A stretch of DNA of 64,000 nt from Balanoglossus misakiensis. Lineage: Eukaryota; Animalia; Hemichordata. The stretch covers positions 16,104,998-16,168,997 of the forward strand of contig CM082578.2 in the NCBI GenBank assembly GCA_040954595.2, given 5' to 3'. Shown in pieces: positions 6,516-29,168 of the stretch. Numbering within the stretch: position 1 is the first letter of the stretch; each line of letters begins with the position of its first letter. A model generated the notes under the pieces. That model saw only the letters and a program-made list of their open reading frames with translations. It was not told the origin of the DNA and did no database searches. The position numbers and the translations under genes were made by a program.

Positions 6516-6572
6516 GCGCCCTCTTGCGGGCGCTCCGTATGCCCTAAGTTCACAACGTATCTGAGAGGGCGC
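6516..6572. promoter_or_regulatory. Inverted pair of CTCF-like motifs upstream of UROC1
   Basis: GCGCCCTCTTGCGG at 6516-6529 (reverse complement CCGCAAGAGGGCGC) and TCTGAGAGGGCGC at 6560-6572, compared with the CTCF core CCASYAGRKGGCRS. Confidence 0.45.
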
Positions 6573-6657
6573 TCATGTTTGAGGTCACACGGTACAGAGT
6601 TCACACAGTGTCAGCTGTGTGTGCATCTGAACAGCGAAAACTGTTTTTGACGCCGTT

Positions 6658-9600
6658 ATGTCATCACTGAAGGAAATCTGCGAATGGCCCTTGGATCAGC
6701 TTCCTCCAAGGCGTCCAAGGGACGAGTCGGCACCCCATGCACCGGTTAGAAATCACGGCCTGGGTGCAGACGAACTGCGGGTGAGTTGATCGTTGAACTT
6801 GTTCAACTTCAAAACAGGTCAACAACGACTTGGTTTGTTTGTAAGACAAACCAAGGCAAAACCGAGAGTTACTGAACTGCAGCTAATTATGTATATGGAG
6901 CAACTAAATTTGGATCAGGCATGGAGAAATGTTTTCAATTTCCATTAATCCCTGTTTCCCAACTATAGCTATACATGTATATCATTATTGAACTTTTAAT
7001 AATTTAACCATAGGTGCATGGACTGTTGAATTACCCCTGGTAATGGTATCACAGACTGGTTTCAGTTTCTGTTTCAGTTTATCCAGTTTCACTTTATTTT
7101 TTTTACACTAAATGGTTATAAATTGTGTACAAGACAAAATGTACCTATAAATGACAATACAGATACATACCACAGAAACATGTGTATAAAATATTGACGA
7201 AGAAATGTGATTTGCTTGCTGAATATTTATGTTTTTTACAGCTTGCTTTGCAAAATGCCCTGCGCTATTTCCCACCGGAGCTGCATGAGACATTGGCACC
7301 GGAATTTGCTGAAGAGTTGCGTCAGTATGGTCACATTTATATGTACCGTTTCCGACCAGACATCCAAATGAGGTAGATCTTTCTCCTGTTTTCTGTTTCA
7401 TCAATATTATCAACAGTATTCAGCGACCAAGATAAGGATTGCTAAAACAAGACAGTTATTCTTAATTGTCAGACAATATGCCTTAATCTTGACCAGTGCT
7501 GTTATGTCATAATCCCTCTAGGAACACACATTTCACCAGATGTGTTAATAGACACCTGTATGAAACTTGTTCATTTCCCTTGCAGAGGTTATCCAGTGAA
7601 TGAATACCCATGCCAAACAAGACAGGCAGCAGCTATTATGCACATGATCATGAACAACCTAGATCCAAGAGTGGCTCAGGTAAGAATAGCTGTTTACAAA
7701 ATGCAAATCATTACAAAAATCAAAATGAAAAACATTTGCTTATGTATTTGTCAGTACACTTGTTTTAGTCTAAGATGTTTTTTACAAACACATCTCTCAA
7801 CAAATCTCAACATTTTCAAATTTCAGTTCCCCCATGAATTAGTAACCTATGGAGGCAATGGTCAAGTATTTTCAAATTGGGCACAGGTGAGACAACTATC
7901 ATATTACATGTATTATTACAGTGGGTTAACTTAACATCTATATACACATTCTTGCTTGACACTGCATGGTTTAGAAAATCTACTAATGCTGTGGATTTTT
8001 GTTTCTATTTATAGTTTCGTATAACTATGCACTATCTGTCAAGAATGACTGAGGATCAGACCCTAGTTATGTATTCAGGACATCCCCAAGGTCTTTTTCC
8101 AAGTCACAGTCGAGCACCAAGAGTCGTTATAACCAACGGCATGGTAAGTATTTTCAGAATCCTGGAAAAGCAATACTCCAGATATCTCTATGTCAGGTCT
8201 GTCTGGTGCCTTATCATGGTTGTAGGTTAAATGAAGGATTGTACAGTAGTTGACTGTCATTTTCCCATTGTTTTGTCCAGGTGATACCCAACTATTCATC
8301 CAGAGATGATTATGATAGGATGTTTGCATTAGGTGTTACCATGTAAGTATCTTACTGACGTTACACCCATCATTGCAGATCTCACAGACTTTATAAGATG
8401 ACTGTTTTCAGAAAGTGTAGTATTTGATTAAATCTTTGGTTTCATTTATATAGCATAGCCAGGATTATCAAATAACTATACCCACTATATTTCTGCTATA
8501 CATGTATATTCTTTTCATAGGTATGGTCAGATGACAGCTGGCAGTTATTGCTATATTGGACCACAAGGCATAGTTCATGGCACCACTGTAAGTGTGCACT
8601 GATCCCTGTCTGTAAAAGAGACAGTAGCTTGATGTGCTGTTTTGGACAACCAGATCAGCCTTTGGAGACCCACCCAAAAACCACCTCTCCCAAACACTAA
8701 CTGAACCCTTTGCCCTAAACCAACGTGGCCTGTTTCCAAACACCACTCAGAGGTCTTACATCAGTGTTAATGTTTTTTTTGTCAGATCACTGTGATGAAC
8801 GCAGGGCGTCGCTACATGGGTGTAAACGATTTGCGAGGGAAGGTATTCCTCACATCTGGTCTGGGAGGAATGAGTGGAGCACAAGCCAAAGCTGCTGTCA
8901 TCTCTGGGTGTGTTGGTGTCATCGCTGAAGTCAGTCTGGAGGCACTCCAGAAAAGGCACAAGCAAGAGTAGGTGTCCAAGTTTTTTTCCATCACTAGGCA
9001 TAAAAAAGGTTCCATGTTCAACAGTCAGTATTAAGGTTCATTGTGAGGTAGGGTGAATTATCATAAGGATGTGGTAAATATTATATACTGTATAAACAAA
9101 AATCCTATTTGATTTTCAGATGGCTTGTGGAGGTCACAGATAACTTGGATAGTTTGATGAACAGAATCAGGTAAGCTTTTAAAATCAATTTGATTTTTCC
9201 TATATTAGTACCAGGAGGTAGGCAGTTCATCAGTGCAACACTGGAGTGCAATAAAATGAAAAATGTGTCTGTAGCATACCAATATAGTCTCTGGTATGTT
9301 CACTATATAAAACCATTCTGCTCTCAAATGCTGCTCTAACTCTCTCACTGAATTGGTTGAGTTTTTAATGATTACAGAGAAGCAAAGAAAAAAAAGGAAC
9401 CTACAAGTATTGGTTACCATGGAAACATTGTTGATGTATGGTACGTACATTTGAGTATCTCATAACACAAGAGTAAGTGAGAAAGTGATTTCCCCTTGCA
9501 GTTACTGATGTATCCACAAAGTCCTACATTACTTCTAGTTGTATTATCAACTCACAGTAAACTGCTGGTTCCGTACATGGGAAGTGACAGTGAATGAATC

Positions 9601-12227
9601 TTTCACAATATGGGAATTTACGACATCCATGTTCAAATTTTGGTAACGTTCCGCTAAAATCTTGTTTTGGTGAAACTTTCAGGGAAAGACTGGTTGCTGA
9701 GTTTGAAAGTACAGGGGAAATGTTGGTTGATTTGGGATCCGATCAAACCTCCTGTCATAATCCATTCAATGGAGGTTATTACCCAGTACAGCTTGCCTTC
9801 GATGAAGCTAATGCAATTATGCACACAGATCCTGGTCGATTCAAAAACCTAGTCCAGGAAAGGTAAGTTTACATTGTGGTGAATTGGGTGCTTATACATG
9901 TATATAGGTTTTCAGTGGCTCCACATCATGGCATGATATACAAAACTACTCCTACTGGGGATTTCACGTTACAAATTGGTGTATGCTGGAAATTGCACTG
10001 GCATGAAAACTTGAACTTACCACACAGGGTGATCATGAATTAAACTCGTTAAAAAACCTTTCATTTTCTATCATTTTCTCTTAGCTTACGACGACAAGTT
10101 GCAGCTATCAACAAACTAGCAGATAATGGTTTGTATTTCTGGGACTATGGTAATGCATTCCTCCTAGAAGCAAGCAGAGCAGGTAAAGTTGAATATGTAT
10201 TACCTGGCTGAGAGACTAACAGCACTTATTTGTTACCATGACATTTCAATTGACAGGCAACATTCTTGTGCCACTTACTGTAATTCATTTTCTCTGAAGG
10301 TGCCGACGTCAAGAAGGAAGGTGATACAACAGGCACTATCTTCCGATATCCATCCTATGTACAAGACATAATGGGGTAGGATGATGTCGTTGTTCACAAT
10401 ATGGTTAATATTAGTGTATATAGATCATTGTAGATTGATGGACTGAAGCAATGTGTCATAAGCTAATTTCTGCATCATACCCAAATCTCATCATTGTTAT
10501 GTTTATTTATAGAGTTCCAATTGCTAAATGCAAATGTGGAAAAACTTGTGTTTGATTCAGGGAGTATGATGGCACAATATGTGCAATACTGTGCACCATT
10601 TTCATGCCAGTACAATGGCCACTCCAGCCCACTGTGTATACAAGTCAGTTCTCATAAAAATGGGAGTGTGTTGTTCTTGATGCTTTTTTTAGCCATATTT
10701 TAAAACTAAATTAATCTGTTCTGTGGTACAGAGATATTTTCTCCATGGGTTTTGGACCATTTCGATGGGTGTGTACATCAGCAGCACCTAACGACTTGGT
10801 TACTACCGATGAAATTGCCACCACTGTACTGGAAGACATTATCAATGCTGGAGGTATGTCTACGATACAGCAGAAAAAAAAGAATATACAGACCCAGTAG
10901 ACTCTGAAAAATAAACATTTATTTGTATACAATGTGACATGATAGTTGCATGTTGTTAGATAAACATGGTAATATTTAAAGTTTTATGTTTTGTTTTTAG
11001 TGCCTGAAAAGACCAAACAGCAATATGAAGATAACATTAAATGGATTAAAGAAGCTGGTAAACATGCCATGGTAAGCATTATGTTGATTTTATATCAATG
11101 TTTCCAGCAAACTTGATATTTGGTGTGTTTATGCATCCTGGATATATGTTCTATGAACAAATTTTCATGCATTCTTTGGTCCTCCTCTTTAACCAGGTTG
11201 TTGGTTCACAAGCCCGTATTCTATACTCTGACCAGAAGGGACGCATAGCCATAGCAAGTGCATTTAACCAGGCGGTCCATGATGGCAAACTACAGGGCCC
11301 AGTGGTGATTAGCCGTGATCACCATGACGTCAGTGGAACAGATAGTCCGTTTAGAGAGACATCTAACATATACGATGGATCTCAGTACTGTGCTGGTATG
11401 TCTTCGCTAATCCTCTCTTGTTAATCGCGACAGGTCTCCTTTCCAACGTATGTGTGACATGTTTGTTGATCATCATGTCTCTGTAGGTTAACTCACCTTT
11501 GCATGATGCATCGATGCACTTTTTAATTTTGCAGACATGGCTGTACAGAATGTGATTGGTGACTCATTCCGTGGTGCCACCTGGGTGGCATTACACAATG
11601 GTGGTGGTGTTGGATGGGGTGAGGTCATGAATGGTGGTTTTGGATTGGTATTGGATGGTTCGGAAGAAGCTGGAGAGAGAGCCAAACTTATGCTAGGATG
11701 GGATGTCTCGAATGGAGTAAGTCACTTTGAAATGATCATGATTCAAGGTTTCAGAATTTAAAATTAAAAAAAATGCTAAAATTGACCCATGAGCATGAGT
11801 CACTTCCTTAAACATGTATTATTAAAGTCAGTAGCAAGCTGCATCATTGTTGTTGAAATTGAATTCAAGTCTGGACTCGATTTAATTTGTCAACAGTACA
11901 TGTCAACTCATGTACAGGCTTTTTTGAGAAGCTAAACTAACACTGAATATTTCATAGATCCAGAAATACAGGGGAGAAAAATACAGAAAAAATAGAAAAA
12001 AGAGTTATTGGGGCTTTGTCATGGAAAAGTGATCACTTGTGAAAAGTTTCGGAAAATTGAATAAATCTTATATTTCTTTCTTTCAGGTTGCTAGAAGATC
12101 ATGGGCTGGCAATGCCAATGCCGAGGAGACTATCTGTAGAGCTATGGATGAGAACAGCAAATTGAAAGTCACCATTCCTTACCATGTACAAGATACAAGC
12201 CTTCTTGATAGAGCTTTACAGTCCTGA
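6658..12227 (+). CDS. UROC1: Urocanate hydratase (urocanase), about 19 coding exons
   Basis: ATG at 6658: MSSLKEICEWPLDQLPPRRPRDESAPHAPVR. Later exons encode [132 protein letters not shown] and VALHNGGGVGWG. TGA at 12225-12227; AATAAA at 12733. Confidence 0.97.
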
Positions 12228-13049
12228 GTCTGGTTTAAGTTTGGATTATGGGCAGCAGTATTATAAGATTTCAACAGTTATAGTACCAGCTATACCCACC
12301 TTAGCTTTTTATTTGGCATTTGATGCATCCTGAATACTTATGTACATGCAGTGAAGTGGTATATATACATCACTTGAGACAATAACCCTTAGCAGACAGA
12401 GTTTTCTAACAATTGCTGCTGTACTTTGTACAATCCTCACTGAATTAATTCTGAATAGATAGTGTATTCAGTTTTCGGTATAAAATTGTTGTCACATTTT
12501 ATAAGGCATTTGTGTATTACACTGTAAGCTCAAAACTCTCATTCCCTAAAATGACCAGGTATGGAGGGGTAGTTTTAAACTTTTTCCACAGAACACAATG
12601 TCTCGGACACTGGTTACAAAGTAAACCAGCTGGCCATAAACTGTTAAGTTAATTTATCCCAACAAAATAGAATCATGATGATAAAATTAGGCAGCGTGTA
12701 GTGTATGTAATACAGCCTTATTTTTTTTAAATAATAAAAACATTCAGACATGCAATTAGTGATGAGTGTGTGATGTTTATTTCAGTAGCTCTCTAGCTTT
12801 TTTCGATGGGGGGTGGGGGAGGGTCACCATGACCACAACAAATCCATCGACCCCCTCCCTTCAAGAAAAAGACCAGTCCCTTAAAAAATCACTGTCGTTA
12901 TCAATTTTATGAGTTGTATTAACAATCTGATGTCCAAAAAGTCGTCACCAGGCGATATACCCGGTATATCATGAACGGCATAATAAAAGCACAGAGATCA
13001 TGTGATTACATGGATCTCGGGCGTGATAGAGGTGGGGGGCCTCTCTCCG

Positions 13050-13160
13050 TTCGTTCATTGGCTAGAGCTGTGTCCATATTAGCAGATTAACCAATGAGCA
13101 AGGAGAATTCTGACACACCTCTAGAAGAGCCTTCACAATAAACAAAGCTGACGTGCATGC
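13050..13160 (+). promoter_or_regulatory. Putative HAL proximal promoter (two CCAAT boxes and a CRE/E-box-like site)
   Basis: ATTGG at ~13057, CCAAT at ~13091 and TGACGTG at ~13149, all within 180 bp upstream of the HAL ATG. Confidence 0.4.
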
Positions 13161-13228
13161 CACATAGAGGCACATTGACAACAAATGTTCTCGTATTTTG
13201 ACCGACAAATTAAAAACGTCCGTTCGCT

Positions 13229-16200
13229 ATGAAAGTCTCTGTGAGAGTCTTAAATGAGTGGATCGTTGTTCCTTCTAAAAATGGCCACGACACCATAGCT
13301 TGGCTGGGAGACGAAGCAGTACGTCGTTACGTCAAAAGCAAACCGTCGGCGAGTCGCAGCATCGGAGACGGAGAAGATGTCAACAACGTCGTTGGGAAAG
13401 TGTTGGAATTGAGGACAGCTCAGGCAGGAAGTTTACTTGATTTCGATGATTATATTCAGGATGTCCTCGACGACAACGACTTTGTTATAACAGGTATTGT
13501 TGGGATTAGTATATTATTGTTTTAAAATACCCAAAGCGAGGGTGGGTGATTAATTTTTGGTGTTTTGACATGTGTATATTTCTAGCTACATGTAGGTAGG
13601 TGTCCGGCACCCTGAGTCCTAAAATTATAACTTACTGTCAACTGACATGGCCTACTTTCTCGGCTGTTATCGCGTTCACGATTCTTGTATGAGTAGTAAA
13701 TCGTGTAAAGATAATCGGCCATTCTGAGAAGACTCAATACCGCCTAGAAATATTCCAGTAGCTGGGCTCTGAACAGGAGACCAGACGCGGAGTAGCTCTG
13801 TTGCGTACTCTGGCCATGGAGGCATATTTTACTGCATCATCATGTACCAGTTTTATCCAGTTTCTCAATGTTAAGTCATGTTGGTAATTACTATGTAGAG
13901 TGTGTTCTCCAATTTTAAATGATGTATTTAAATTATTGCATATCCACACCAATTTTTAATTTACACAATCATACTGAAGATGCCTTAGACTTTTTCCTTC
14001 TTAGAATTTTAATCACAATTGAATTTAATATACTTTTGGGGACAGAAGACTTTTGTAAATTGAAAGAAAACTACAATTCTTGAAAAAAAAAGTTTTATAC
14101 ATTGCATCCTCAATGAATTTTTGAAATTAACAATGGTCAAGCTAGAGTTCCTACATTAAATTTAATTAAACTTCTAGGTAAATAATAGTGTAAAACCTCT
14201 CATGTGAAAATTAGCATATTTGGCGGGAAGTAATCAAATACCCATGTGCAAGTGCAACTGACCTGAACAGCTTAAGTTCATGAACATATGTTCAAATTCA
14301 CATGTGAAGAATGAGAATACCAAAAAGGCATGGATTGTTTTGTGACAGTCACATGACCTGCATCGTCTGCTCGCATGGGTTGTTTAGCTCAAGGAGGATG
14401 GTAGCCATGTTTAGCTCGACTACAGTCTGAGTCTCCCTAATTTTCAGAGAGCAAAAAGACCTTGACACGTGAAGTTGCATGAACTGTGAAGCCATCATGG
14501 TGTGTAGTATTATGAGTAAAAACTGATTCCTTTTCCTCTGTGTGTGGGAAATGTGAGAACAATTATTAAGTGGGTTTCTGGAGCATACATTACCATGACC
14601 TACATTTAAGGGTCAACTTACAGACTGAGCCTTTATATATTGCAGTTATTATCTTGCAAATTATTTATGAGCGTCAGCTGCCTTCAGCATACATAACACT
14701 ACACCAAATAACATTGCAGCAGTAACGTCGTTCATAAAAATGACAATTAAATCAGACACGTACACAAGAACTTGTTATTCAAGGACATAAACAGTAAATT
14801 CTTAATGTTTGTGGTCCGATTTCTTGATTCTCGAGAATTTAAACAGAAGGAGAATTATCTGATAATTCTGTAGCTATAAAGTGTAATGGAGATGGAGTTC
14901 AAATGATGTCTGTTTTTCTCTTTGCAGTGTTGGATACTGATGAACAGCATTCAGATGTACCGCTATCAAGAAAAGGATATTTGTTACAAAAACAAATGTA
15001 TCCTTTGATGAGTTTTGTTGTCACATAAGAGTATGGATAAAGAAATGGTTTATGTGAAAAGAGTAGTTTTTCATGACTTGATTGGAATACACATGTGAAC
15101 CTCACAAGCTACCTATTAACACAGTTGATTACATGTGATATAAGTCTAAGATACATGTATGTAGATTTTTGATGTATCAATTCAGCTACAGTATCTATTT
15201 TCTTTAACTTGTGATGGTTATCAGTGACGGCAAGTTTGAAGAGGCTTCACATGTAAGTGAAATTATTCTTTCTTATTCTGTTTAATGGTTACTTCATAAC
15301 TGTACCAGTATACTACTGGGGTACCAGTATATCAATGCATAAGACTAGTCTTAGATTATCAGATGGTAAAACATATTTTTCCTACTACAGGTACCGTGCA
15401 CTTTTAGCCACGAAAAGCACATTGCCTGTATGACCAAGCGTTGGTCTTTATGATGTAGTTGTTCACCAAATGTCCAACAAGGATGCCACATAACTTCATT
15501 TATGATGCTTATTTTTTATTAGTTAAATTTACGCAATATTTACAGACTAAAGAACAATATTCAGCTAACTGTAGATTTCATTAAGTGTTTATGCTGTGTT
15601 GTATTTACAGTGTATGACCCTAGATGGGAATTCTTTGTCTACTGATGAGTTGGTACAACTTGGTAAAGGAGCTTACAAAATTAAGGTAAAGGCTTTCCTG
15701 AAGCAAGTAAACCTATCGGCTCTGTTGAATATATCTGTCTGTTTGTCCCACCAGATCTGATCCAAATGTTGTTGTTTTTTCTCTAAATAAAATTTGAATT
15801 GTCTACAGGTTGTGTAACATTGCCTCATGGAGTAGACTTCACCAACGTTTTGGAAAAGAATTTTTAAAGCAAAAAATTATATGTCTTTTATGTTACAGCT
15901 GTCGGAGGAGGCTTGGGATAAGGTGCTTAAAGCTAGAACATTATTGGAAGAAATAATAAGTGAAAACAAAGGTGAGAAAATGGGGAACTTGAATCAAGTT
16001 CTGTAGTGATTTGCATTTTATGTAGCTTGTTTTACGGACTGTCTTTGTGGGTTACCTGCAAATAAGTGAATTACTGTTTGACATCATATAGACAGTGCTA
16101 TGCTAAGAATGTTTCAAGTCTCTCATTATCATTTCACTGTTTACTTTCTAGTTGCCTATGGAATAAACACAGGTTTTGGAAAGTTTGCAAGAGTCGTCAT

Positions 16201-19200
16201 TCCGTCAGAAAAATTGAGGTCAGTAGAAAACACAATGTTCTTGAAATTTATAGTTTCAAAATGTTGGTCTTGATAAAAGCATAGGCTTCAACCTTAGTGG
16301 CCATGTTTTTCATGTCTTTGGATTAAATTATATCACCAAACCGCTGAGGAGGATATGAAAAAAATAATGAAAATGTTTACAGTTTACGATACTTATTTCA
16401 TAATCTGTTAAAACCCTTGAATTATTTTCCAGTGAACTCCAAAGGAATTTGATCCGATCACATGCAGCAGGAGTGGGAGACCCTCTGTCGCCAGAGAAAA
16501 CACGAATGCTGATGGCGTTACGCATTAACGTGTTGGCAAAGGGCCATAGTGGAATCAGTAGACCTACATTACAACAGTACATCGATGCCTTGAATGGTGA
16601 GTACACCAATTATCATAGTTTACTTATTCAGTTGTAAATTCTGAAGTTCAACAAACTATCAAACATTTGTCCTCCTAGATCTAGGTTTTGCGAGTATCAG
16701 GGTTTTTTTTAATAATCAACCGCCACTGTCACATAATGACGCTCTTTTATTTTCTTTTTTTTCCATTGCAGCTTCTTGTTTACCCTTTGTGCCAGAGAAG
16801 GGCACAGTGGGGGCGAGTGGTGATCTGGCTCCGTTGGCTCATCTGGCATTGGGGATGATGGGTGAAGGGCAAATGTGGAGCCCAAGGAGTGGATGGGCTA
16901 ATGCAAGCACTGTAAGTGTCAAGTTTATGTCACTCAGGTTCAAGTTATTAGAGACCGATAGTGCCAGTTTTTGTTTAATTCAGAATGATTCAAAATACTA
17001 CAGAAAAGCGTATATGACAGTATATCTATCTGATCCCCCCCCCCCCCCACCCTTTTTTTAAGTGGGCGATGCCATAAGCCCTTGATATCAATACTGACAC
17101 TGCATATCAGTCCATGGGATGTATACTGTGTACCACAGGTCAACCACTGGTTCTCTAAACTTTATATAAGGAATATAATATTTTATTTGGCATTCTTCGC
17201 AGGTCCTTGCAGCCCATGGCTTGCAGCCAGTTAGACTTGGCCCAAAAGAGGTAAACCATAATATTTTTCCTTTTAGCCCCCATTTGGTGTAAGCAAGTGT
17301 AAATACCAATGTGAGCTTCTGGAATGAGTTGGGTCGAGCATCTCTGTGTGTGTTTGTGTGTCTGTCTCTCTGTATCATCTGTGAACAATGATGACATCAA
17401 AACCACTCAGCTATGGTTATTTTGACTCTGTAAATGGACTTATTATTAGCATCAGGAAGTCTATTTTGATCTTTTTTATTAGCATCAGTGAGTCTATTTT
17501 TATCTTTTAATGGTGAATTAAATTGTCATGGTAAATCTGATTAATTTATTCATTTATTTTTGCAGGGACTTGCTTTGATCAATGGAACACAACTTATTAC
17601 ATCAGTTGCAGTTTTAGGTATGTTTAGATACAAAATAAAAATGTGAAATAGCATTGTTGCTTTACATTTTTACCTGAGTTTGAAGTCTCAGTCTTTCTAG
17701 CAATTTCAGAACAATATCAGATCATCATGGAAGATTTTATCTATGAAATTATGGCAAAGTATTTCATTAATTGTTTTATTAATTTTATTTTAGCTTTGGA
17801 GAGAGCAGCGGCAATTGCTAGGCAGGCAGACGTGGTTGCAGCATTAACATTGGAAGTTCTAAAGGGTACAACTAGGGCTTTTGATAGTGGTGAGTCAGAA
17901 GTGTCTGTTTCACATTCACATATGTTTTGTGAGAGAGTCTTGAGAAAAAAGATTGTGATTTAATTAAACAGCTTTTCAAGCCAAGATGCTTTGATGAATT
18001 ATTCTTTTTGATTGAAAACATTTGTTTTTCAGACATCCATGCCGCACGACCTCACAAAGGCCAGAAGGAAGTTGCTGCTAGATTCCGGGCTTTGCTTCAT
18101 TCTGAGTATCACCCATCAGAGATTGCAGAAAGTCATCGCTTTTGTGACCGTGTTCAAGATTCCTATACTCTCAGATGCTCTCCACAGGTAAGCCATCATA
18201 ATAATTTTGTTGCAGTACACCCTTTAGAAGTGTGGTCAGTGTTAAGATATGAAGATGACCAAGATTCAGCATTAGACTATAACCTATACAGTCGGTTTTT
18301 CATTTGCTTTATACAGGGCAACAACAAATCCTAGAGACTGCTGCCATGTATAAGGTGCAAAAACCATTTATTAAAAAAAAAAAAGCTTGTGAATGATGTC
18401 ATGGTGAAAGGGGTTAATACAAGTAGACAAGTGAGCTAGTCAATAAATACAACAAGCCAAGAATCATTGTGTGTGGAGCTATATACTTTTTGACTGGATA
18501 ATCACAAACCATTTTATTGCAGGTCCATGGTGTTGTGCATGATACTATTGATTTTGTCCGAGGGATCTTAACGACCGAAATGAACAGCGCAACAGACAAT
18601 CCCGTATCCTTTACGTAACACCTGTGTTCAATGTAGTACACAAAGGCCACACTGATGCCTTGCATGCAGCACTGTAAACGGGATTTTGTTCAAATGATGA
18701 TGAAATGGGAGCACAGTGTCTTTGACACTATTTTTTGCATCAGGGATTCTTCTGTCTGGAAATGATCCTTGACATACACGACCCAGATGGTTTTTCCTGA
18801 ACGGCATGAAATTATTTCCGGTGGAAATTTCCATGGTGAATATCCAGCTAAGGTAATGTTCAGTAATTCTTGTTGTGCATGCTGTTCTTAAATCAATCAA
18901 TCATCAATGAAGTAATCGTAAATGAACATTGCATTCATCATTAACATTTTCCATTTTATTCTTGTTACGATCCAGGCAGCAGATTTCTTAGCCATTGGCA
19001 TACATGAGTTGGCAAATATCAGTGAAAGAAGAATTGAGAGGCTTTGCAATCCAGGTAGGTATTCACTGTGTACTCAGTATTATGATACTTACTAGCATGT
19101 AAAGTAATGCCAACATTTTCACCGTGTGTCTGTATGCAAATAGAATATGAGAACAAAATTGAAAGGCTGTAAATGGATATACAGTCAAGTGGATTATTAA

Positions 19201-20560
19201 ATTCCACACTTTGACCATATTTCTGTGATGACTTTTTTTCAGCATACAGTGACCTTCCAGCTTTCTTGGTACAAGATGGAGGACTCCATTCTGGGTTCAT
19301 GATTGCACACTGCACCGCAGCATCACTGGGTAAGTCTCAACATCATTCTTCATCGTGGTAATTTGGTTAGCTGCACGCAATCTGGATTTAAAACTATACC
19401 TGTCATGTAAGTGTTGTAATTATAACATTGATAATGGTTAATTGTTATTACCACAGTTTCTGAGAATAAAGTGCTGACACATCCATCGTCTGTGGATTCC
19501 CTGTCAACCAGTGCTGGCACTGAAGACCATGTGTCTATGGGTGGATTTGCAGCCAGGAAAGCCCTCACTGTGGTTGAACATGTAGAGCAAGGTGAATCAC
19601 CATTTTATTGTGATTGTGAGAAGTTTCTACAACAGCCAGCTCAACATCCAGACATCCAGACAACTAGCATGAAGGATTGATCTGTCAAACTTACCAAGAT
19701 TGTTAACAAACTGGAATTTTTTCAAGTGAATAACTATCTGTTTTCATCAGATGGAATTTTTTCATGGATCATACATCTTGGATATTCACAAGTTTATTTA
19801 AATGTAATTGGTTTCTTGCAGTTATTGCAATAGAGCTGCTGGCAGCTTGCCAAGGTATAGAATTCCTAAGACCATTGAAGACTACTAAACCATTGGAAGC
19901 TGTTTATCAGTTGGTACGGAGTTATATTAGGTACGTCATTATTATCATAGAGATTGTAGGCTGTTTCGATGACTTATGGAGAATACTTTGGGGTAACCTG
20001 ATGGGGGAGCAGTGGTTGTCTGACTTGAACCTTGCTGTCTTTTCATTGTCATGTGTTTTTATTGGTATAAACATATTTGGAATTTTCATTTTTATTTGAA
20101 GGCCATGGGATAAGGATCGTTATATGTCTCCTGATATTGACCAGGCAACCAAACTGTTACGTGAAGAAAGGGTATGTCTTGTCTCCTTTTAGGTCCATTG
20201 TAAACGACATGAAGCTGCAGATCAGATTGTCCGTCTTTATCCATCTGTCAACAATTCCATTTGGTGTGCAGATCCCTGGGGTTTTGTTCAAATTGTGACG
20301 GAACCTGCAGCGATGTATTTTTGGGCCAATGCAGTTCATTTGCATGATGTTTGAGTAAAACAACTATAATTGCATTTTTATATTGCCGTGTTTCGTAATT
20401 GCACTATTTGAAGTTTGTTCTTGTTGAATGTTCTCTGCAGATTTGGCATGCTGTCAGACCATACATCAGTAACTATGAAAGTGGAATTTCGAAGGAAACC
20501 AGAATGCCGTCTCCAACAGCAACCACATTAAATGCATCCAAGAGGATGAAGATGGAATAA
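13229..20560 (+). CDS. HAL: Histidine ammonia-lyase (histidase) with animal-type Par3/HAL N-terminal domain, about 19 coding exons
   Basis: Exon 13229-13493 ([33 protein letters not shown]) is the Par3/HAL N-terminal domain. Catalytic-domain motifs: [21 protein letters not shown], the MIO-forming [12 protein letters not shown] at ~16801-16836, [58 protein letters not shown]. Last exon 20441-20560 (TAA); AATAAA at 21649. Confidence 0.97.
14998..15224 (+). other. U12-type (minor spliceosome) GT-AG intron in HAL
   Basis: 5' site GTATCCTTT at 14998, branch-like TTCTTTAAC at ~15200-15208 and CAG at 15222-15224. Splicing it keeps the frame through a 28-nt micro-exon (15225-15252). Confidence 0.8.
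17443..17508 (+). repeat. Two-copy ~33-bp tandem duplication in a HAL intron
   Basis: TTATTAGCATCAGGAAGTCTATTTTGATCTTTT is followed by TTATTAGCATCAGTGAGTCTATTTTTATCTTTT. Confidence 0.7.
18604..18786 (+). other. Second U12-type GT-AG intron in HAL
   Basis: GTATCCTTT directly follows the NSATDNP codons. TCCTTGAC branch site at ~18766-18773 and CAG at 18784-18786 with no polypyrimidine tract. The next exon, [17 protein letters not shown], is in frame. Confidence 0.85.
18698..18741 (+). repeat. Copy of a dispersed ~44-bp repeat family
   Basis: Matches 63706-63749 at 41 of 44 positions. Partial copies lie at 1407-1430, 39075-39104 and 54183-54230. Confidence 0.8.
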
Positions 20561-21713
20561 ACTTCCTTCAGTGATGTCATAGACATTTGTACATTTCAAG
20601 CGACATTGCACTGTACATGGCAACTTGGGGCTAATTTCACACTTTCTGACAAGTTGGCTCGTCTTATGCATATACTTAAACAGATAGCCTGATAGACCAT
20701 GACATGACGGCAGCCATGACTTTTCTTATTTCAACGCCAAAATGCATCAGGTGCCAAGTAAGCTGCACCCACTCTCAAAGCATTTTTATTTCAACGACAT
20801 AATATCAAAAACAACTTTTTTTTGCTTAAAACATTCCATTTTGAGCTTTCAGTACAGTCATAATCAAAGTCAAGTTCAGATATCCCACTTTGTTAAAATG
20901 TGTGGTGTGTAGGGGTTCGCACAGTCTTTGATGAGAAATATGCTCGAAAAACAATTGTACAGGTATACAGCACCACCATATGGGCATTATTGCACTGCCA
21001 AACTTTGGACAACTTTATCATGGACAAGAAATTTATCAGGGCATTTATAATTCGTGGCATTAAAAAATGTTGAGAAAATGTAACAACCAAATAGATTAAC
21101 CAGACTAGTTACATATTATTGATGATATTGCTATGGTTAGTCCTGTCAGTAAATAAACCTTAACTAATAAGAAACTTGATAGCATAACGTTAAACAATGC
21201 ATAACTAAGTTTTCATTTACAAAATGTAGCCTGTATGTTACAACACATGCACATTGCTTTGTGCAGCCAGACATTTTTATTCAGAAATGTTGAAGGGTAT
21301 TTATAAATAGTTCATTGTAGGGAGAAATGGTCCAGCATTGTGACCATGCTTGTAAATGTCATTTTATGTGTGTCAAGGACACAATTTTATACATTTTTCC
21401 TTATTACATATTGTAAGGAGTTTTCATTTTTAAATATCTTTTGGTGGATAATCATAGAAGCATGAATTGAATGTCAACAAAGAATGGGAGTCAATTGTTC
21501 CAGCCGGTGTGGATACTTGTGGTATCATTTTTTTTACATATATAATGTGTGAAATCAATGACATATATGACAATAATAGTGATAAGTGTGAATAACTTTC
21601 ATTAACAATGCTTTCATCCCTTTATGTTGTGAATTTGTGTTTTGTTTGAATAAAACAATGCATAAAGCAGACTGTTCTTTTGAAGTTATTGTGTTATCTT
21701 TCAAGATATTAGG

Positions 21714-22148
21714 TAGCCCGGAGACGCGGGCTTTACACGGGCTTTGGTCTAGGGGAAAAGGAACGCCCGGGGACAGTCTCTATTTACGCACCGAATTCTG
21801 TGCGCAGAACGACACGGGTGGTAAATCTTGTGTGTAAGCTAATTGGTCACTCAATGTAACAATGTGTAAACCAGATGACATCATCGCATTCTAAATAAGG
21901 AAATAGAGGTGGAGTCATGTGTGAAATTCCCGCGGAGGGGGATGTGGGAGTGGTTTACCAAGCTTTGTTAATTATATCATCCAACCACTGGCGCCCGTCA
22001 ACATTTGATAGATCACTCGTTATCCATTCGTTACTAAGCGACCCTGATCGTTGCCAGGGCTACTATCTTTCAGCTCAGCAGGAAGTTAGTCCACTGTCCC
22101 CGGGCGTTGTATTCTAGATTCTAGATCAACGCCCGCGTCTCCGGGCTA
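21714..22148. mobile_element. 435-bp non-autonomous DNA transposon (MITE) with 18-bp TIRs and a 9-bp TSD
   Basis: Perfect TIR TAGCCCGGAGACGCGGGC (21714-21731) pairs with GCCCGCGTCTCCGGGCTA (22131-22148). The direct repeat GATATTAGG flanks both sides (21705-21713 and 22149-22157). No transposase ORF. Confidence 0.92.
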
Positions 22149-22240
22149 GATATTAGGCTGCACAGGCGTTTCGATTATGAGGGCGTACATCAAAACGTGT
22201 TATTATCATTGGCATAAGGGGCTTTATGCAAATCAACAAA

Positions 22241-22513
22241 ATGGCTCCTGAGAAGGGTTCACCTGGTTATCTAGCTCTGGTAAAAGATTTGTACAAAAAT
22301 CCGGGGAAGAGGTAAGATTTGAGTCGAATCTGCAGAAAGGGGTTACAGGAGAGGTAATCGATATGGAGTGACCCCCAGGGACATCCATGTAGGCTAGCTT
22401 TACCGTCCATAGCAGGTTTTCCACAGGAGTCCGTAGCTGGCCGGTGGCATATCAACTTACCATGTACTTGTACCACGTGTGCTACCCCGGTGTACTACTT
22501 CCGGACTGTGATT

Positions 22514-22544
<31 letters not shown>

Positions 22545-22816
22545 GGGAGCTGCATAATCTACCACAAGGGAGTACGCGTGTGCACCAGCTCCCCTGCTCT
22601 ACATATAGTCATGCATCTCAATTTGGCAATTTCTTCTCAGTAATGTCATGCCGCATATTATCAAGTTGATAGCAAACTCAATATTTAAAACAAAAACTAT
22701 TTTCTTCCAGGTCATTCATCAGAAATCTTTTGTTGTTTGGAGTTGGCGTGTGGTTGGCAAGAGAGTTTGCTGATGTCGACATCATGGGTTCTGCACCACC
22801 ACAACCCCAAGTTTAG
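22241..22816 (+). CDS. TOMM6: Mitochondrial import receptor subunit TOM6 (58 aa, 2 coding exons; not in ORF track)
   Basis: Exon 22241-22311 (context CAAAATGG, donor GTAAGA) joined to 22711-22816 (acceptor TTTCTTCCAG, stop TAG) gives MAPEKGSPGYLALVKDLYKNPGKRSFIRNLLLFGVGVWLAREFADVDIMGSAPPQPQV. This matches the recalled vertebrate TOMM6 C-terminal half, RRNLILNLGLFAAGVWLARNLSDIDLMAPQPGV. Confidence 0.88.
22513..22548 (+). repeat. (TG)n microsatellite joined to a poly-G tract in the TOMM6 intron
   Basis: TGTGTGTGTGTGTGTG followed by about 20 G. Confidence 0.85.
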
Positions 22817-23333
22817 ACCACTGCAGTTGATAAAGAGATCTTTGAGGTAAAACTTCCAAAAGTATTGTGATATGGTACCCATGTAGTGGGTGTGTGTTTA
22901 TTTGTAACAACTAGTCATTCTGTTTGTTTCAGTGAGAACAACACCAATAGCCCATCAATCTTTTTCCAACAGACAGGATTTTGAAAAACCAAACGGCCAT
23001 TCTACATACACAAGTAGAAATGCAGGGAAGGATGAATCATCAGAGAAGATGGGATAACTTTATCAACCAGGGATCAAGAAGCCTATTCTGGAAGTCATTG
23101 TGACAGGCTGAGAGTTCAACAATGCAGCATGGATAACAAATTGTAAAGAAGACACACAACGCCAGCAGAAGCAAAATTAGAAATGCATATTTCTTTATTC
23201 ATTCATTTTGGTCCAGGTTTCACTCATATCTTTGTCTATCAAAAGCTAATCCTTAAGAGACAAAGTACATGTATGTGTATTTACGAGAAATGTTTTTAAA
23301 ATAAATTTTCTTTAAAACTTAAATAGCTACTGT

Positions 23334-24595
23334 TCATCTTGTCACTGGTGGTGGTTGCACTGGCTTCCGTCCAAGGAAATGATTGAAATGGTCTAAATAC
23401 TGCATGATGGTATCTGTGGATGTGTAGTTTGCATCATGTTTACCAACAAGGTACAATGATAATGATGGTGTGTGATTTCCCATAAAGCCTTGCATGAACT
23501 CTGAGAGGAGATTCCAACAGTCCATAATCACAACACAGGGAGTGTATTCAACCTGGAGAAAAAGAATAAGCAAGAGAGATAAGAAATTGGATTTGGATAC
23601 TACGTCATTTTAACGGAACGGAACCCAATGTATTAGTCCCCAGAGGGAAAATATCCTCATGCATTCATAAGAGAACTGGGTAATATCCACATCTTAAAAT
23701 AAGAGTTCACATGAACTATGCATGCAAGGTTCCTACCTCAATGAGAACACCTTTGGTACTGGGTCCAACTGACACTGTTCCTATTTTAACAATAAAATCA
23801 CCAAGTTCATAGTGTTGTCCCTTTGATTCGATCTTGTTAGTTTTCCTTGGGATGTAAAAGCCTTTCAGTTTCTGGACCATGTGGTCAAAATTGTTGTCTG
23901 TGACCAGACAATTTGAAGTCCAGGGTGAGCTAGAATTTTCTAGTACAGCATATGTTGTCAGTGGCTGTTCAGTGTTATGCATGGCATGCATTATCTTCTG
24001 TGGCCCTGCAAAGAATGACAATATGAGCTGGTTGACTCGAGTAGCCAAGCTAAGTTGCTAAAAATAAAATTGTAAAAGTTTGGGAATATTCTAACAAATA
24101 GGTGCTAGTTACACTGATACATATATGATTGACTGTTCATACCATCCATTTTTTCTTCTTCACCAATGCATACTGCGACAATCACATGATTGGCACCAAA
24201 GGCATTCATTGGATAACCATCCATCTAATATAAGAGCATGAAGAGACAGAGCAACTGAATTCTTGATCCAAACAGTCAACATTCTGCAACCTACCACTGT
24301 TCACACTTACCACTTATGCCTGTTGATGATTGGTAAGTTTCGCAATCCACACAAAATGTTCCAATCTTGGTAGCACCAAGCAACTCCACTCTCTTGGTAA
24401 TCATCTCAACAATTTGTTGCTCATTTTTGTTATCAGGAACTGGCCACTGACTTACACTGGAAGGAATATGTACAGAATTTTATGTAGTAAAAACAAGATT
24501 GTGACATTAATAGAATGTGCTCCTGTGTTCTGGAAAGGAACATTGTGCTCCCAATTCATCAGAATGAATTATTTCACTTACCACGTCACTCCCAT
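23334..24595 (-). CDS. MED20: Mediator complex subunit 20, 4 coding exons
   Basis: A 14-nt first exon (24582-24595, ATG GGA GTG ACG TG|gtaagt) is followed by MGVTCVSQWPVPDNK..GTFCVDCETY, MHNTEQP..DNNFDHMVQKLKGFY..KIESKG..DFIVKIGTVSVGPSTKGVLIEVEYTPCV..DCWNLLSEFMQGF..DTIMQYLDHFN. Stop at 23334-23336. Confidence 0.93.
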
Positions 24596-24965
24596 CCTCT
24601 GAAGTTCAAGATTAGTGTAAACTTTATTTACAAGCGATCACTGAAGTGCCAAGAGTAATGAAAGGCGCCCTCTGGAGAGAGGCAAGCCACGCGTTCGATT
24701 GTTTGTTGTTTACCTTCACCAACAATGTCGTTCTAGAAAACTTGCTCAAAACTAGAAATACACGAATAGATACACGCAGGAAAAAACATTCAAACACAAG
24801 AAAAGTCCGTTGTGTTGCGATGCTGGTGAATAAAATAATGAAAATGTCACTAGACGGTCCATTAGTTTACTATTTATGTTTGACATTTTGAACGCCAACT
24901 TAGGGAGCTCCATGACCTGTGTGCGCGCATCGTGAGAAGCAAACGTAAAAGACGCGTGGTTTACA
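24596..24965. promoter_or_regulatory. Bidirectional promoter between MED20 and SNRPF
   Basis: Divergent ATGs are 370 bp apart and the interval is CpG-enriched. It holds a CTCF-like GCGCCCTCTGGAGA (24665-24678) and an NRF1-like TGCGCGCA; a YY1-like AATGGCGGC overlaps the SNRPF start. Confidence 0.6.
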
Positions 24966-25930
24966 ATGGCGGCGGTAAGTGACAACAAACTCGTAGAATG
25001 CTGTGCTTTTCAAGACAGTTGTATTTTTGGGTAGCTCGAGGCAGTGGAGTCGCATCAATATACACACTCTTTATTTACATGTACAAAAATTAGACGAATT
25101 CTTATGCTACGTACCTTTATTTTAAAGTTTCACATTCTCAGGCTGAATGAAACAATGCAGTGCCATTTTGCCATAGAGGAGACAGAGATACTGCTGCTGT
25201 AGCCTGTAGATCCATGATGGAACAACATTTTCATTAGAGTATTGTTCATGAAACTGTTCTCTCTCTCTTTCTCTCTGACAGACACTACCACTGAACCCTA
25301 AGCCCTTCCTGAATGGACTGACAGGAAAACCTGTTATGGTAAAACTTAAATGGGGAATGGAGTATAAAGGTTATCTTGTGTCAGTAGATGGATACATGAA
25401 TTTACAGGTCAGTTGTCTTCCTGAGAGAAAGAATCAGATGTGCCAAATGTTTCTCATTGTGTTGCTATTGTGATAAAACATTTTCCACCAGATTTGGCTA
25501 GCTTAGTGGATGTTTGTTTTAAACTGTATTTAGTTTCTTACACGGTTCTTTTCCCTTGTAGTTGGCTAATACAGAAGAATTCATTGATGGTACATTGACA
25601 GGAAATCTAGGAGAAGTTCTTATCAGGTGAGACTTGATTTACATATTTTTAATGTTGTAAGCACTTACCCATCTTCAGTCCAGCATCCAGCATGCACTTA
25701 CACACCAAACAACACGTACTTCCATCAGCAATTTACTTTCATTGAAATTCCTATGCATTCCATGGCATTTCTTATGAATAATTACTGTGTAGTTCAACAA
25801 ACATCTCTTGTGTATCATTTGCACAGAATTCCTCTAAATCTCACCTTTCATCTATCTTTGCAGATGCAACAATGTCATGTATGTTAGGGGGGTTGAAGAG
25901 GAAGAGGAGGATGGTGAAATGAGAGAATAA
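24966..25930 (+). CDS. SNRPF: Small nuclear ribonucleoprotein F (Sm-F), 4 coding exons; not in ORF track
   Basis: Exons 24966-24974, ~25282-25407, ~25562-25626 and ~25864-25930 give [94 protein letters not shown] at ~26153. Confidence 0.97.
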
Positions 25931-26789
25931 TTATGAAGAACAGTTGGTGTGAAAAGGAAGTGAAAGGGCATGGGGTCCAGGGGTCATATTTTTTGGCAGC
26001 CCACTTTTGTAAATGTTTGTCGTCAACAGTTCTGTAAATTATATGGATATTGTCAGATTTCACACAAGAAGACATTTTCCTTTGATATTTTTGTGTCTGT
26101 ACTTGCAACATTTTATTCAAATGTGTTTATTTTAAAGTTTTCAGACTGCCGTAATAAACTTTTTATATCATAATACCCACTTTGTGGTTTGCGGTTCTAT
26201 TCTGGGTTATAGAAATTAGGATGTATATGCTTATACATAGGAGTCCAATCATAGGCTAGATCATAGGGTCAACATGTTATTTATGTGCTTGTATTGAAGG
26301 ACAGAAGGCATTGTAGATTTGTGTCAACTATTGTTTTATTTGACTCCACATGGTTGGTGAGATCGCAATAAATCTCAGTCTTAGTTATTACATGGTCTAT
26401 ATTAGACAAGTGTTGGTGATCTTTTAATAGATTTATTGTGTCTTGTTTGTACAGGTATACTTCGTTCCTCAATGAGCCCACAAATTTTTTCAAGCTGTGC
26501 TGATCCAAAGCCTTACACCATTCCCAAAATGTGCTTTCACCTCTACATTACAAGCAATGCCATCTCTCAGATTATAGTGAGGAGGGCATCTCATTTGTTT
26601 ACTCCCATTATATTGCACAAATGGCCATGCATCGATAGGGATGGCAGTCAACCACATCTCATACAGTGATTTTATGTGAATAACGTAAGCAAGTAAGAAT
26701 GGCCTGACTACATCTTAGTATTTCTACTAGGTAAAGTTGCATAAAGAACCATCAGACAGTTCGGATAGTCCTTTCCAAGTTATATATTT

Positions 26790-29168
26790 TCAGACAGACA
26801 AAGGTGCTGATGGCTTGGTGAACACCACGTCTCCCCTTTTCACCACATACTGGATGAGCTGATCATGTCCACCCATCTGATAAATCAAGTGTTCCCACCT
26901 GCAAAGGGATTAGTTTGTAAAAAATGATATTAGTGAAGCTGTTTGCAAAATTTGGTCTGAGTATGGGGCAGTAACAAGAACTACCATAAAGTATGAAATG
27001 CTTATATTGATTTACCATACTGACAATCATTCAAACACACTGCTATATGCATGTTTTGGCAGAAACTTACCTGGGTGCATTTATGATCACAAGATCGCCG
27101 ACTTTTCCAACCTCCAATGATCCATGGGTGTCAGCTTTACCAAGTGATGCTGCACTGTTGATTGTAGCAGCATTCAGTGCTTCATTCATCGACATGTGGA
27201 GATTAACACACGCTAGATGCATGGTCAGTGGCTGAAATCATAGAATTTGTGAACGTTTAGACAGGTAAACCTTATCAGTACTATTGCACTGAAAAGTTAA
27301 AAATAAATGTATACATACCATGGAAAGACAAAAGACACCAGGATTGAAGTCTGTACCAAGTGCAATGGCAACTCCACTGTCTATCAACTTCCTGGCTGGT
27401 GGTTTATTCAGTCTCAGTACATAAGCTGTAGTGGGTAATAAAACACCAATGCTGCCAGACTTGGCCATTGCTGCAATGCCCTCATCGCTGATCTCTTCAA
27501 GGTGACTGATGGCTCTGGCGTTCAACTCGGCTCCTAACTGGAAGAAGATGTGGCAAAATGCAAGTTATTATCAATGTGGAACCAATTTTAAGTTCTGTAG
27601 TCTGTCTATGGGAGAAGTGGCCAGGGAACCAGCATATCATGCCTACCTCTGCAGATTTCATTGGATGAAGTTCTTCACCATGGAAGTTGATGGCAAGGCC
27701 ACCTTTCACACCTGCTTCTAAGATCCTCCTGGTCTGATCTAAGTTGAAGACGCCTTTTTCGCAGAAGACATCTATGTGATCAACTTCAAGTTCACCATTT
27801 GCCATCATCTGTTGGACACGGGGCAGCTGAACATTGATGACATCATCAGTGGCTTCATCCGCTGTCTTGCCCCTAAAAACAACATGAATAGAACCATAGG
27901 GTACTTACTGTACACCAGCCACAATGAGGAAAGTTAGCAAAACAGCAGATGTAATGAGGCACTAACACATACACAATTACTTACTTAGGGATTGAATGTG
28001 CACCACAAAAAGTACTGGAAATCTCAATTGGCAAAGCCTTCTTGGCCCTCTGTATCACCTTCAACATTTTGATTTCTGTGTCGACATCCAAGCCATAACC
28101 ACTTTTGCATTCCACCAGGGTTGTACCACTTTTCAACATCCTCTCCAATCTCTCCTTGAAAAGCTCATACAGTCTATCTTCAGATGCTTTCCTTGTGTGT
28201 TCTACAGTGAAATTGATTCCACCACCAGCCTGATGCACCTCCATGTATGAGGCACCAGCTAACTAAATTGGCATGATGAGAAATAGGAAGATAATATCCA
28301 TTCATTAATTTTGATATAGGAAACAATGCTCGGATAGAAAGAAAAAAAAATAGTACCGGTATATGATACACATTAGTTGGACTCGCACTAATCAATCAGG
28401 CAGGCACTTTCTGAAAAATTGAGTTCATCTTGCTTGACAATATAGACTATTACCTTCATGGCAAATTCCTTTACTCTATCTCCATCCCAAACTGGATGTG
28501 TGTGTCCATCTATGAAACCTGAAATGGACAAGCCAAAATATCACCATCTGCATACATTCAAAGCTATCTGGCAAATGATTTCAAAAGTTTTTGACACAAT
28601 GTTGCAAGATTACAAATATGCAAATATGTGAAGAGGATTCCACTGTACCTGGCAGAACACACTTCCCAGTGGCATCGATGACATTTTCAAATTTCGCATC
28701 TTTATAATGCTCTAGTATTTTGGCATCATGATCAATCGCTTCAATTAAACCATTGCTGAATGACAAAGAAAAGAAATAAGGTAGCATCATAGACTTAAGA
28801 ACTTGGAAAAGGCAAAAAATCGATTCGTGAGGACACGCCCACTTTCCACTACCATCACCAACCATAAGCGGTGGTACTACATGTAGTATCAAAACTTCAC
28901 CTCGGGCTCAAGCCCCCAAAGAGTGGTTTACGTGCTGTTGGTTTGGCTTCTAATGGTGAATGATGCCACAAGCTTCACATGTACAATACATGTACTGTAC
29001 ATGACGTGCAGAAATGTACTACCTTCCAATCACTATGCTGACCCCATTTTGGCCGTCTTCTTCAACCAAAGCGACATTTTTCATTGCCTCTCCCTTCAAA
29101 ACTTTCTCCCCACTTTTGCATACTTGGACAACTTGTCTAGCATGTTTAACTAGCAGTTTACCAGCCAT
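26790..29168 (-). CDS. AMDHD1: Imidazolonepropionase (amidohydrolase domain-containing 1), 8 coding exons
   Basis: ATG at 29168 (MAGKLLVKHARQVVQVC). Motifs: metal-binding LPGFIDGHTHPVW, YMEVHQAGGGINFTVEHTR, GTTLVECKSGYGL, FCGAHSIP, IDVFCEKGVF, INFHGEELHP, AISHLEE, ALGTDFNP, RWEHLIYQMGGHDQLI. TGA at 26790-26792. Confidence 0.96.

Follow-up and report, generated by a model that had tools for sequence, protein, structure and literature searches.

Histidine is degraded in consecutive steps: histidine ammonia-lyase (HAL) converts it to urocanate, urocanate hydratase (UROC1) converts urocanate to imidazolonepropionate, imidazolonepropionase (AMDHD1) opens the ring to give formiminoglutamate, and FTCD hands the formimino group on to folate. 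In yeast, the GAL and DAL clusters each bring together unrelated enzyme genes of a catabolic pathway; every gene is transcribed alone, the genes are co-induced, and few bystanders interrupt them. Such clusters of unrelated genes from one pathway are considered rare in animals. In bacteria, the FtcD-type hut operon of Bacteroidota unites the three enzyme families, with a long-form urocanase. Among animal loci, microsyntenic blocks listed by Simakov 2013 (PMC4085046; clusters 492/493, 475/476/512 and 3395/3396/3436) contain the same genes as the block described here, HAL, urocanase and MED20 being common to amphioxus and the sponge Amphimedon, and AMDHD1, HAL, a USP gene and netrin to amphioxus and human. 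These blocks differ from ours in being separate Pfam/Panther-labelled rows, none of which joins all three enzymes, and in having been compiled without hemichordate data. The main text of that study does not mention the pathway, and its single 'histidine' refers to histidine decarboxylase. On human chromosome 12, the pairs AMDHD1-HAL and CCDC38-AMDHD1 have been recorded (PMC7530604 Table S3; PMC2871058 file 6).

We analyzed a window of 64,000 nucleotides from the acorn worm Balanoglossus misakiensis, in which UROC1, HAL and AMDHD1 are all intact within one six-gene run of ~22.5 kb (6658..29168), beside a further gene transcribed divergently from AMDHD1:

6658..12227, plus strand: UROC1, urocanate hydratase, step 2; 18 coding exons, 676 aa
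13229..20560, plus strand: HAL, histidine ammonia-lyase, step 1; 20 coding exons, 659 aa
22241..22816, plus strand: TOMM6, bystander; 2 exons, 58 aa; PF15184
23334..24595, minus strand: MED20; 4 exons, ~215-230 aa, inner splice sites not fixed; PF08612
24966..25930, plus strand: SNRPF; 4 exons, 88 aa; LSM
26790..29168, minus strand: AMDHD1, imidazolonepropionase, step 3; 8 coding exons, 436 aa
30743..35300 (ends approximate, first exon not fixed), plus strand: CFAP100/CCDC38-family gene

Spliced alignment to Ptychodera proteins gave complete models for the three enzymes, with no internal stops and every intron GT-AG, at identities of 89.9% (UROC1), 85.7% (HAL) and 89.5% (AMDHD1), and acorn worms supplied their nearest relatives. 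In Ptychodera, the orthologous proteins score above the NCBIfam equivalog cut-offs for hutU, hutH and hutI; these families were also the best matches of three single exons of the window, with scores under the whole-protein cut-offs. HAL contains the Par3/HAL N-terminal domain, the Ala-Ser-Gly (MIO) triad, YTLR and EDHVSM; UROC1 contains GLGGMSGAQ; and AMDHD1 contains HTH, HGEE and DFNP, all of which we take to be catalytic motifs and, for AMDHD1, metal-site motifs. The three genes encode full-length predicted enzymes that carry these motifs and are non-homologous to one another (a urocanase, an aromatic lyase and an amidohydrolase). The sequence-only reading was right on gene identities and order, including the three small genes between HAL and AMDHD1, on the absence of a recent operon transfer behind these intron-rich, animal-type genes, and on a spacing of about 1 kb between UROC1 and HAL, measured here as 1,002 bp from stop to ATG. 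MED20 and SNRPF are arranged head-to-head, with 371 bp between start codons. The same reading had found step 4 missing, and indeed a bacterial FtcD query matched nothing in the window with E<0.5; as controls, queries with bacterial HutH and HutI did detect HAL and AMDHD1 exons. The laminin gene in the window was considered as the netrin-4 of the vertebrate block and ruled out, since it matches laminin beta (E 1.5e-79) far better than netrin-4 (1.4e-28).

The trio shares its order of urocanase and lyase genes with the Bacteroidota operon, but it has neither the single strand nor the single transcript of a bacterial-type operon: AMDHD1 lies on the opposite strand, CpG observed/expected peaks occur at the 5' end of each gene, and AATAAA signals lie between genes. 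The CpG peaks indicate separate promoters, and the trio consists of three separate intron-rich genes, each likely with its own. It also lacks the transporter, regulator and formiminotransferase of the operon. It resembles the yeast clusters as a linked set of non-homologous catabolic enzymes, but differs in that three housekeeping genes interrupt it and step 4 is missing. On human chromosome 12, too, AMDHD1 converges on HAL and diverges from a CFAP100-family gene, and SNRPF is close by, whereas the vertebrate locus has no UROC1.

The linkage extends beyond this lineage: it is found in sponge and amphioxus as well as Ptychodera, where the accessions XP_070559214/215/217 belong to a single chromosome. 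According to the supplementary rows of PMC4085046, all three enzyme genes lie close together in Amphimedon and amphioxus. On Amphimedon Contig13516, MED20, HAL and urocanase occupy 491,155-513,915, with two gene models separating HAL from urocanase, and an AMDHD1-labelled gene and its PTHR21683 neighbour follow from 559,445, so that the trio fits inside ~70 kb and up to 19 gene models. On amphioxus scaffold_37 the order is AMDHD1, x, HAL, x, USP, x, netrin/laminin, UROC1, MED20, with the trio inside 8 gene models. At least three orthologues lying no more than 10 genes from each other in distant animals, the mark of an ancient metazoan microsyntenic block, were found in the window, amphioxus, Amphimedon and one further contig (L003), which carries UROC1, HAL and MED20. 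UROC1-HAL, UROC1-MED20 and MED20-SNRPF adjacencies occur in other animal contigs, MED20 adjoins HAL or UROC1 in further animals, and both UROC1 and AMDHD1 have been placed in ancestral linkage group 6.

Accession numbers placed UROC1 and AMDHD1 6-14 apart in five of seven amphioxus annotations. As a negative test this distance was rejected, since the RefSeq values for B. floridae (275) and B. belcheri (975) contrast with the 6-14 of other annotations; nothing therefore follows from the wide RefSeq spacing seen in Glandiceps, Lineus, Antedon, Asterias and Pomacea. Two contigs, L003 with UROC1(-)/HAL(+)/MED20(-) and L027 with UROC1(-)/HAL(+), show UROC1 and HAL head-to-head, their start codons 260 bp and 212-222 bp apart, respectively. 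The orientation is shown for these two loci only, and they represent both of the loci, out of 54, that extend to the UROC1 start. The contigs look non-bilaterian, but this placement is tentative: the UROC1 tree, which misplaces tunicates, separates them with weak support from the bilaterian clades that it names, and in the HAL tree L003 sits beside hemichordates (0.879). No linkage of the trio was found in a unicellular outgroup, and in the amoeba Balamuthia UROC1 and HAL lie on separate contigs. Across animals, the trio is intact in some lineages, dispersed over one chromosome in others and split in vertebrates.

In chicken, SNRPF, AMDHD1 and HAL lie inside 30 kb, and in dog the order is SNRPF, CCDC38, AMDHD1, HAL. 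Human CFAP100 lies ~30 kb from ZXDC, and in cattle ZXDC and UROC1 share one 138-kb interval. CCDC37/CFAP100 and CCDC38 carry a common ohnolog id (2530). Since UROC1 is near CFAP100 and AMDHD1-HAL is near its ohnolog CCDC38, the vertebrate trio was likely split by genome duplication, which would account for human HAL and AMDHD1 lying side by side with UROC1 elsewhere. The CFAP100/CCDC38-family gene is a marker that ties the window block to both human loci.

With 20,000 genes, three named genes fall in one six-gene run with P 1.5e-7 per triple, and the chance of co-location ranges from 1.5e-7 to 9e-6 per triple (2e-6 to 9e-6 for the loose sponge span), or 0.001-0.006 once the genes are presumed to share a linkage group; if there are 1,000-10,000 pathway triples, as assumed here, 0.0002-0.09 cases are expected. 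Accidental co-location of the trio is therefore unlikely. Like eukaryotic metabolic gene clusters, the trio comprises three or more non-homologous enzymes of one pathway physically linked beyond chance, but on qualitative comparison its linkage is not better conserved than that of the bystanders. Conservation of the block extends to MED20, CFAP100, SNRPF, a kinase and a USP gene, about a third of blocks (157/469) persist when shuffled within linkage groups, and urocanase appears in only two rows of the table, those of amphioxus and sponge (PMC4085046). These points would suit an accident of early gene order, preserved by slow rearrangement and unrelated to the pathway, which we nonetheless judge improbable because chance persistence leaves unexplained the meeting of three consecutive enzymes, which has a low probability even over the loose sponge span. 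An origin as the relic of a single bacterial hutU-hutH-hutI operon, acquired by an early eukaryote, appears more improbable still. The bacterial urocanases retrieved are long-form, mostly from Bacteroidota and ~62% identical, and hutU, hutH and hutI follow the window order at 55 of 80 loci. However, in a comparison of scores among these 80 of 476 bacterial loci, rather than of broadly sampled trees, the HutH of those operons reached at most 408 bits against animal HAL, no better than Pseudomonas-type HutH structures (406-419), and their HutI at most 257, below PDB 2BB0 (273). The operons with the closest HutU thus have no closer HutH or HutI, so that no single donor is indicated and the scores do not support a single-operon origin. 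Furthermore, relatives of HAL and UROC1 are widespread in eukaryotes (amoebae, oomycetes, PDB 6V6H and 6UEK), and any transfer would have long preceded animals.

The trio might instead still be co-regulated in gut or hepatic tissue, through common enhancers or a single chromatin domain, with selection against a pile-up of intermediates. The window arrangement is the tightest seen (6 genes in 22.5 kb, where amphioxus spans 8 gene models and sponge as many as 19), the UROC1/HAL spacing of 0.2-0.26 kb in L003 and L027 fits the <1-kb signature of bidirectional promoters (PMC3514665), one CCAAT-type 8-mer occurs upstream of UROC1, HAL and AMDHD1, and 469 blocks were observed where shuffling predicts 157 (PMC4085046). 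Nevertheless, in a comparison of low power, the number of 6-8-mers common to the three upstream regions did not exceed that in random triples taken from the window, of which 150/400 (k=6), 135/400 (k=7) and 117/400 (k=8) reached the observed counts; a shuffle null reached them in 5, 8 and 27 of 300 cases, which we read as a composition effect. Housekeeping genes lie inside the trio, the head-to-head UROC1/HAL pair is not retained in the window genome, and the vertebrate pathway runs with UROC1 unlinked. We therefore regard present-day co-regulation as doubtful, and the 'possibly co-regulated' of the sequence-only reading finds no support. The same applies to its 'selectively maintained': linkage of MED20, CFAP100/CCDC38 and SNRPF has lasted as long as that of the enzymes, and vertebrates, like several invertebrates, no longer keep the trio together. 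The outcome that it had named as refuting its proposal, linkage no better conserved than that of unrelated neighbours, largely holds on this qualitative comparison.

The reading that we favour, with modest confidence, is a pathway-assembled block of separate genes, older than the sponge-bilaterian split and surviving mainly in slowly rearranging genomes. That age is likely; the chance calculation, in which the number of pathway triples is assumed, is the single ground for also considering it likely that the block first came together because the enzymes act in sequence. At the outset UROC1 and HAL would have stood head-to-head, served by one short promoter, and AMDHD1 would have lain tens of kb from them; the divergent pairs UROC1/HAL, MED20/SNRPF and AMDHD1/CFAP100 may have restricted the breakpoints that could be tolerated. 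In this acorn worm UROC1 is now in tandem with HAL, in a block made tighter by the absence of the genes that intervene in amphioxus; in vertebrates reciprocal loss after genome duplication would have left AMDHD1-HAL beside CCDC38 and UROC1 near CFAP100. Today the block would persist mainly where rearrangement is slow.

So far only pieces of this block have been published, as anonymous table rows. We found no animal literature describing the trio as a pathway cluster in a search that most subscription papers lay outside, and the terms searched had no match in the supplements of PMC11175523, which reports on hemichordate genomes. The trio represents a cluster of primary catabolism traceable from sponge to deuterostomes, and its intact, scattered and split states provide natural controls with which to ask whether ancient microsyntenic blocks are kept by function or by slow rearrangement. 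HAL has a role in skin, where urocanic acid builds up. A bolder history, which we put forward tentatively and consider unlikely, is that the first animal possessed the trio around a bidirectional UROC1/HAL promoter, that sponges, acorn worms and amphioxus still regulate it as a single unit, and that vertebrate duplication split UROC1 off, freeing HAL to build up urocanic acid in skin. If true, this would be a primary-metabolism cluster of the same age as animals.

Spliced alignment gave complete models of UROC1, HAL and AMDHD1 (steps 2, 1 and 3 of histidine catabolism), with canonical introns, no internal stops and 86-90% identity to their Ptychodera counterparts. The sequence-only reading had called the trio apparently intact, which these models bear out; the bounds that it set, 6658..29168, fall precisely on the outermost pair of start codons, and its gene order and strands are those found:

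6658-12227, + strand: UROC1, 18 exons, 676 aa
13229-20560, + strand: HAL, 20 exons, 659 aa
between HAL and AMDHD1, + strand: TOMM6
between HAL and AMDHD1, - strand: MED20
between HAL and AMDHD1, + strand: SNRPF
29168-26790, - strand: AMDHD1, 8 exons, 436 aa
next after AMDHD1, on the opposite strand to it: CFAP100-family gene

The absence of FTCD (step 4) from the window also held, since a bacterial FtcD query found no match there and bacterial HutH and HutI queries reached their targets. The window is animal DNA with a GC content of 33-42%; the acorn worms Ptychodera, Glandiceps and Saccoglossus are among the top matches to exon queries from the trio, and both the UROC1 (0.92) and HAL (0.96) trees make the window sister to Ptychodera flava. 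Ptychodera has a second HAL gene on the same chromosome (521 aa) that lacks the N-terminal Par3/HAL domain, and some teleosts (Megalops, Albula) have a second HAL clade.

Several other features were seen in the window. Upstream of UROC1, at ~600-5400 (+), lies a gene for a single-pass membrane protein, possibly cytokine-receptor-like, with weak Pfam matches to fibronectin-III/IL-17-receptor-like domains. A CpG-rich stretch of raised GC at 36885-37400, between the CFAP100-like and laminin genes, holds reverse-transcriptase-like peptide remnants and is likely a decayed transposon. The full laminin beta chain gene at 40861-53076 (+) was considered as netrin-4, which is part of the vertebrate and amphioxus block; this identity was rejected, as its top solved match is laminin beta-1. 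CCDC115/Vma22 (55746-57660, -) stands head-to-head with a PHD-JmjC demethylase gene (58050 onward, +), which we take to be of the KDM7/PHF8 type.

The block in the window is not an operon, because AMDHD1 lies on the opposite strand to UROC1 and HAL, CpG observed/expected (counted in 500-bp bins) rises to 0.8-1.1 at each 5' end (bins at 6.5, 13.0, 21.5-22.5, 24.5 and 29.0 kb) from mostly 0.1-0.5 elsewhere, and AATAAA signals follow each gene. The three 600-bp upstream regions have 64 hexamers, 12 heptamers and 2 octamers in common, counts reached in 5, 8 and 27 of 300 shuffles respectively; random triples of window DNA reached them in 150, 135 and 117 of 400 trials, so that at the power of this comparison there is no sign of shared upstream motifs.

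Across 27 animal species, paired by eye and with a shared contig as a proxy for linkage, those of the three genes that were found lay on one contig in 18, were mixed in one (Mercenaria) and lay on different contigs in eight (Acanthaster, Patiria, Anneissia, Clavelina, Lingula, Ylistrum, Polypterus and Megalops cyprinoides), several of these assemblies being fragmented. The common scaffold is small in Saccoglossus (469 kb), the millipede Chamberlinius (409 kb, accessions 37 apart) and Diadema (2.4 Mb). Accessions are near-consecutive in Ptychodera (XP_070559214, 215 and 217) and 169 apart in submitter order in Owenia. The amphioxus UROC1-AMDHD1 gap is 6, 7, 9, 10 and 14 in five annotations as against 275 and 975 in two RefSeq sets, and wide RefSeq accession gaps are thus no evidence of distance.

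In metagenome data, 54 loci matched a pattern that runs across a UROC1 splice acceptor, and AMDHD1 is present in none of them. Two of them (L003 and L027) extend to the UROC1 start, and in both HAL lies head-to-head with UROC1, the start codons being 260 bp apart in L003, where MED20 follows, and 212-222 bp apart in L027. Among the seven loci with at least 1.4 kb past the UROC1 end, none has HAL there, two have MED20 (L013 and L042, the latter followed by SNRPF), four have no recognisable gene and one, L007, has NDK7 and ALG11 directly downstream of an intron-rich UROC1; both of these L007 genes are intronless (599-2089 and 6480-7616, -). Of 13 modelled intron positions, 12 are common to L003 and the window. 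The W..VPC/WLGEE pattern of bilaterian HAL N-termini is missing in L003 and L027, which have a divergent ubiquitin-like HAL N-terminal domain (4760-4993 and 3107-3337, respectively); against the Par3/HAL Pfam cut-off, this domain barely passes in L003 and falls short in L027. The UROC1 tree places both loci weakly outside the named bilaterian clades, a placement with which the HAL tree conflicts. As its gene order is that of Amphimedon, L003 likely comes from a sponge.

That order is found in the published microsynteny rows of PMC4085046, in the part of its supplement consulted. Cluster 492/493 lists MED20-HAL-urocanase for both Amphimedon (Contig13516:491,155-513,915) and amphioxus (scaffold_37:2,909,764-3,017,420), and the first gene of cluster 475, at Contig13516:559,445, is labelled PTHR22642/PF01979, as is human AMDHD1 in cluster 3395 (PMC4085046). 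In the sponge, the trio, with AMDHD1 identified by label, thus lies within ~70 kb and no more than 19 gene ids; in amphioxus it lies within 8 gene models. The urocanase rows seen there are these two only, which implies that the other genomes of that study keep no block of three with urocanase. Published tables, as far as consulted, assign UROC1 and AMDHD1 to the same ancestral group 6 and to different Trichoplax groups. It is unlikely that the trio came together by chance, the probability being 1.5e-7 in the window and 2e-6 to 9e-6 over the sponge span; an assumed 1,000-10,000 pathway triples would give 0.0002-0.09 such cases.

In vertebrates the block would have been duplicated and then subjected to reciprocal gene loss; a third fragment of it may be TOMM6-USP49-MED20 of human chr6. 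ALDH1L1, which acts after FTCD in folate one-carbon metabolism, was not seen when the window's ORF list was inspected by eye. We take ENSG00000084110 to be HAL. In the tables of PMC7530604 consulted, 'noTD' rows (Table S3), taken to be ancestral non-developmental pairs, join AMDHD1 with ENSG00000084110 and CCDC38 with AMDHD1, and CCDC37/CCDC38, USP44/USP49 and ALDH1L1/ALDH1L2 are ohnologs (for ALDH1L1, Table S6). The excerpts consulted of other papers give SNRPF, AMDHD1 and HAL inside 30 kb in chicken (PMC6339939), the order USP44, NTN4, SNRPF, CCDC38, AMDHD1, HAL in dog (PMC13332154), a CCDC38-AMDHD1 gap of 643 bp (PMC2871058) and ZXDC ~30 kb from human CFAP100 (CCDC37) (PMC5634485). ZXDC and UROC1 share 138 kb in cattle with ALDH1L1 (PMC10464233), and the three are likewise together in sheep (PMC12267044).

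Descent of the block from a single bacterial hut operon would agree with the hutU, hutH, hutI order of 55 of the 80 bacterial loci analysed, out of 476, and with the long-form bacterial urocanases retrieved (899-971 bits). However, operon HutH (373-408 bits against animal HAL) and HutI (207-257 bits against the animal enzyme) come no nearer than bacterial enzymes of solved structure do (406-419 and 221-273 bits), and the HAL clade spans eukaryotes, so that such a relic is not supported. That selection still maintains the grouping seems doubtful to us, since the unrelated neighbours MED20, CFAP100 and SNRPF have been linked for as long as the enzymes, the trio is broken in many lineages and, in the part of PMC4085046 consulted, shuffling leaves 157 of 469 such blocks in place. 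Divergent gene pairs <1 kb apart are described as a brake on rearrangement in the excerpt consulted of PMC3514665.

The three enzymes are ordinary, and their linkages are already public as unnamed rows of supplementary tables. Our literature search found no paper describing these linkages as a histidine-catabolism cluster, and term searches of the available portions of PMC2871058 and PMC11175523 gave no mention of one; background was drawn from parts of PMC7036892 and PMC6702985. The grouping is real and, provided that the published Amphimedon rows hold, predates the sponge-bilaterian split; on balance we lean, by a modest degree, towards early functional assembly as its simplest explanation.
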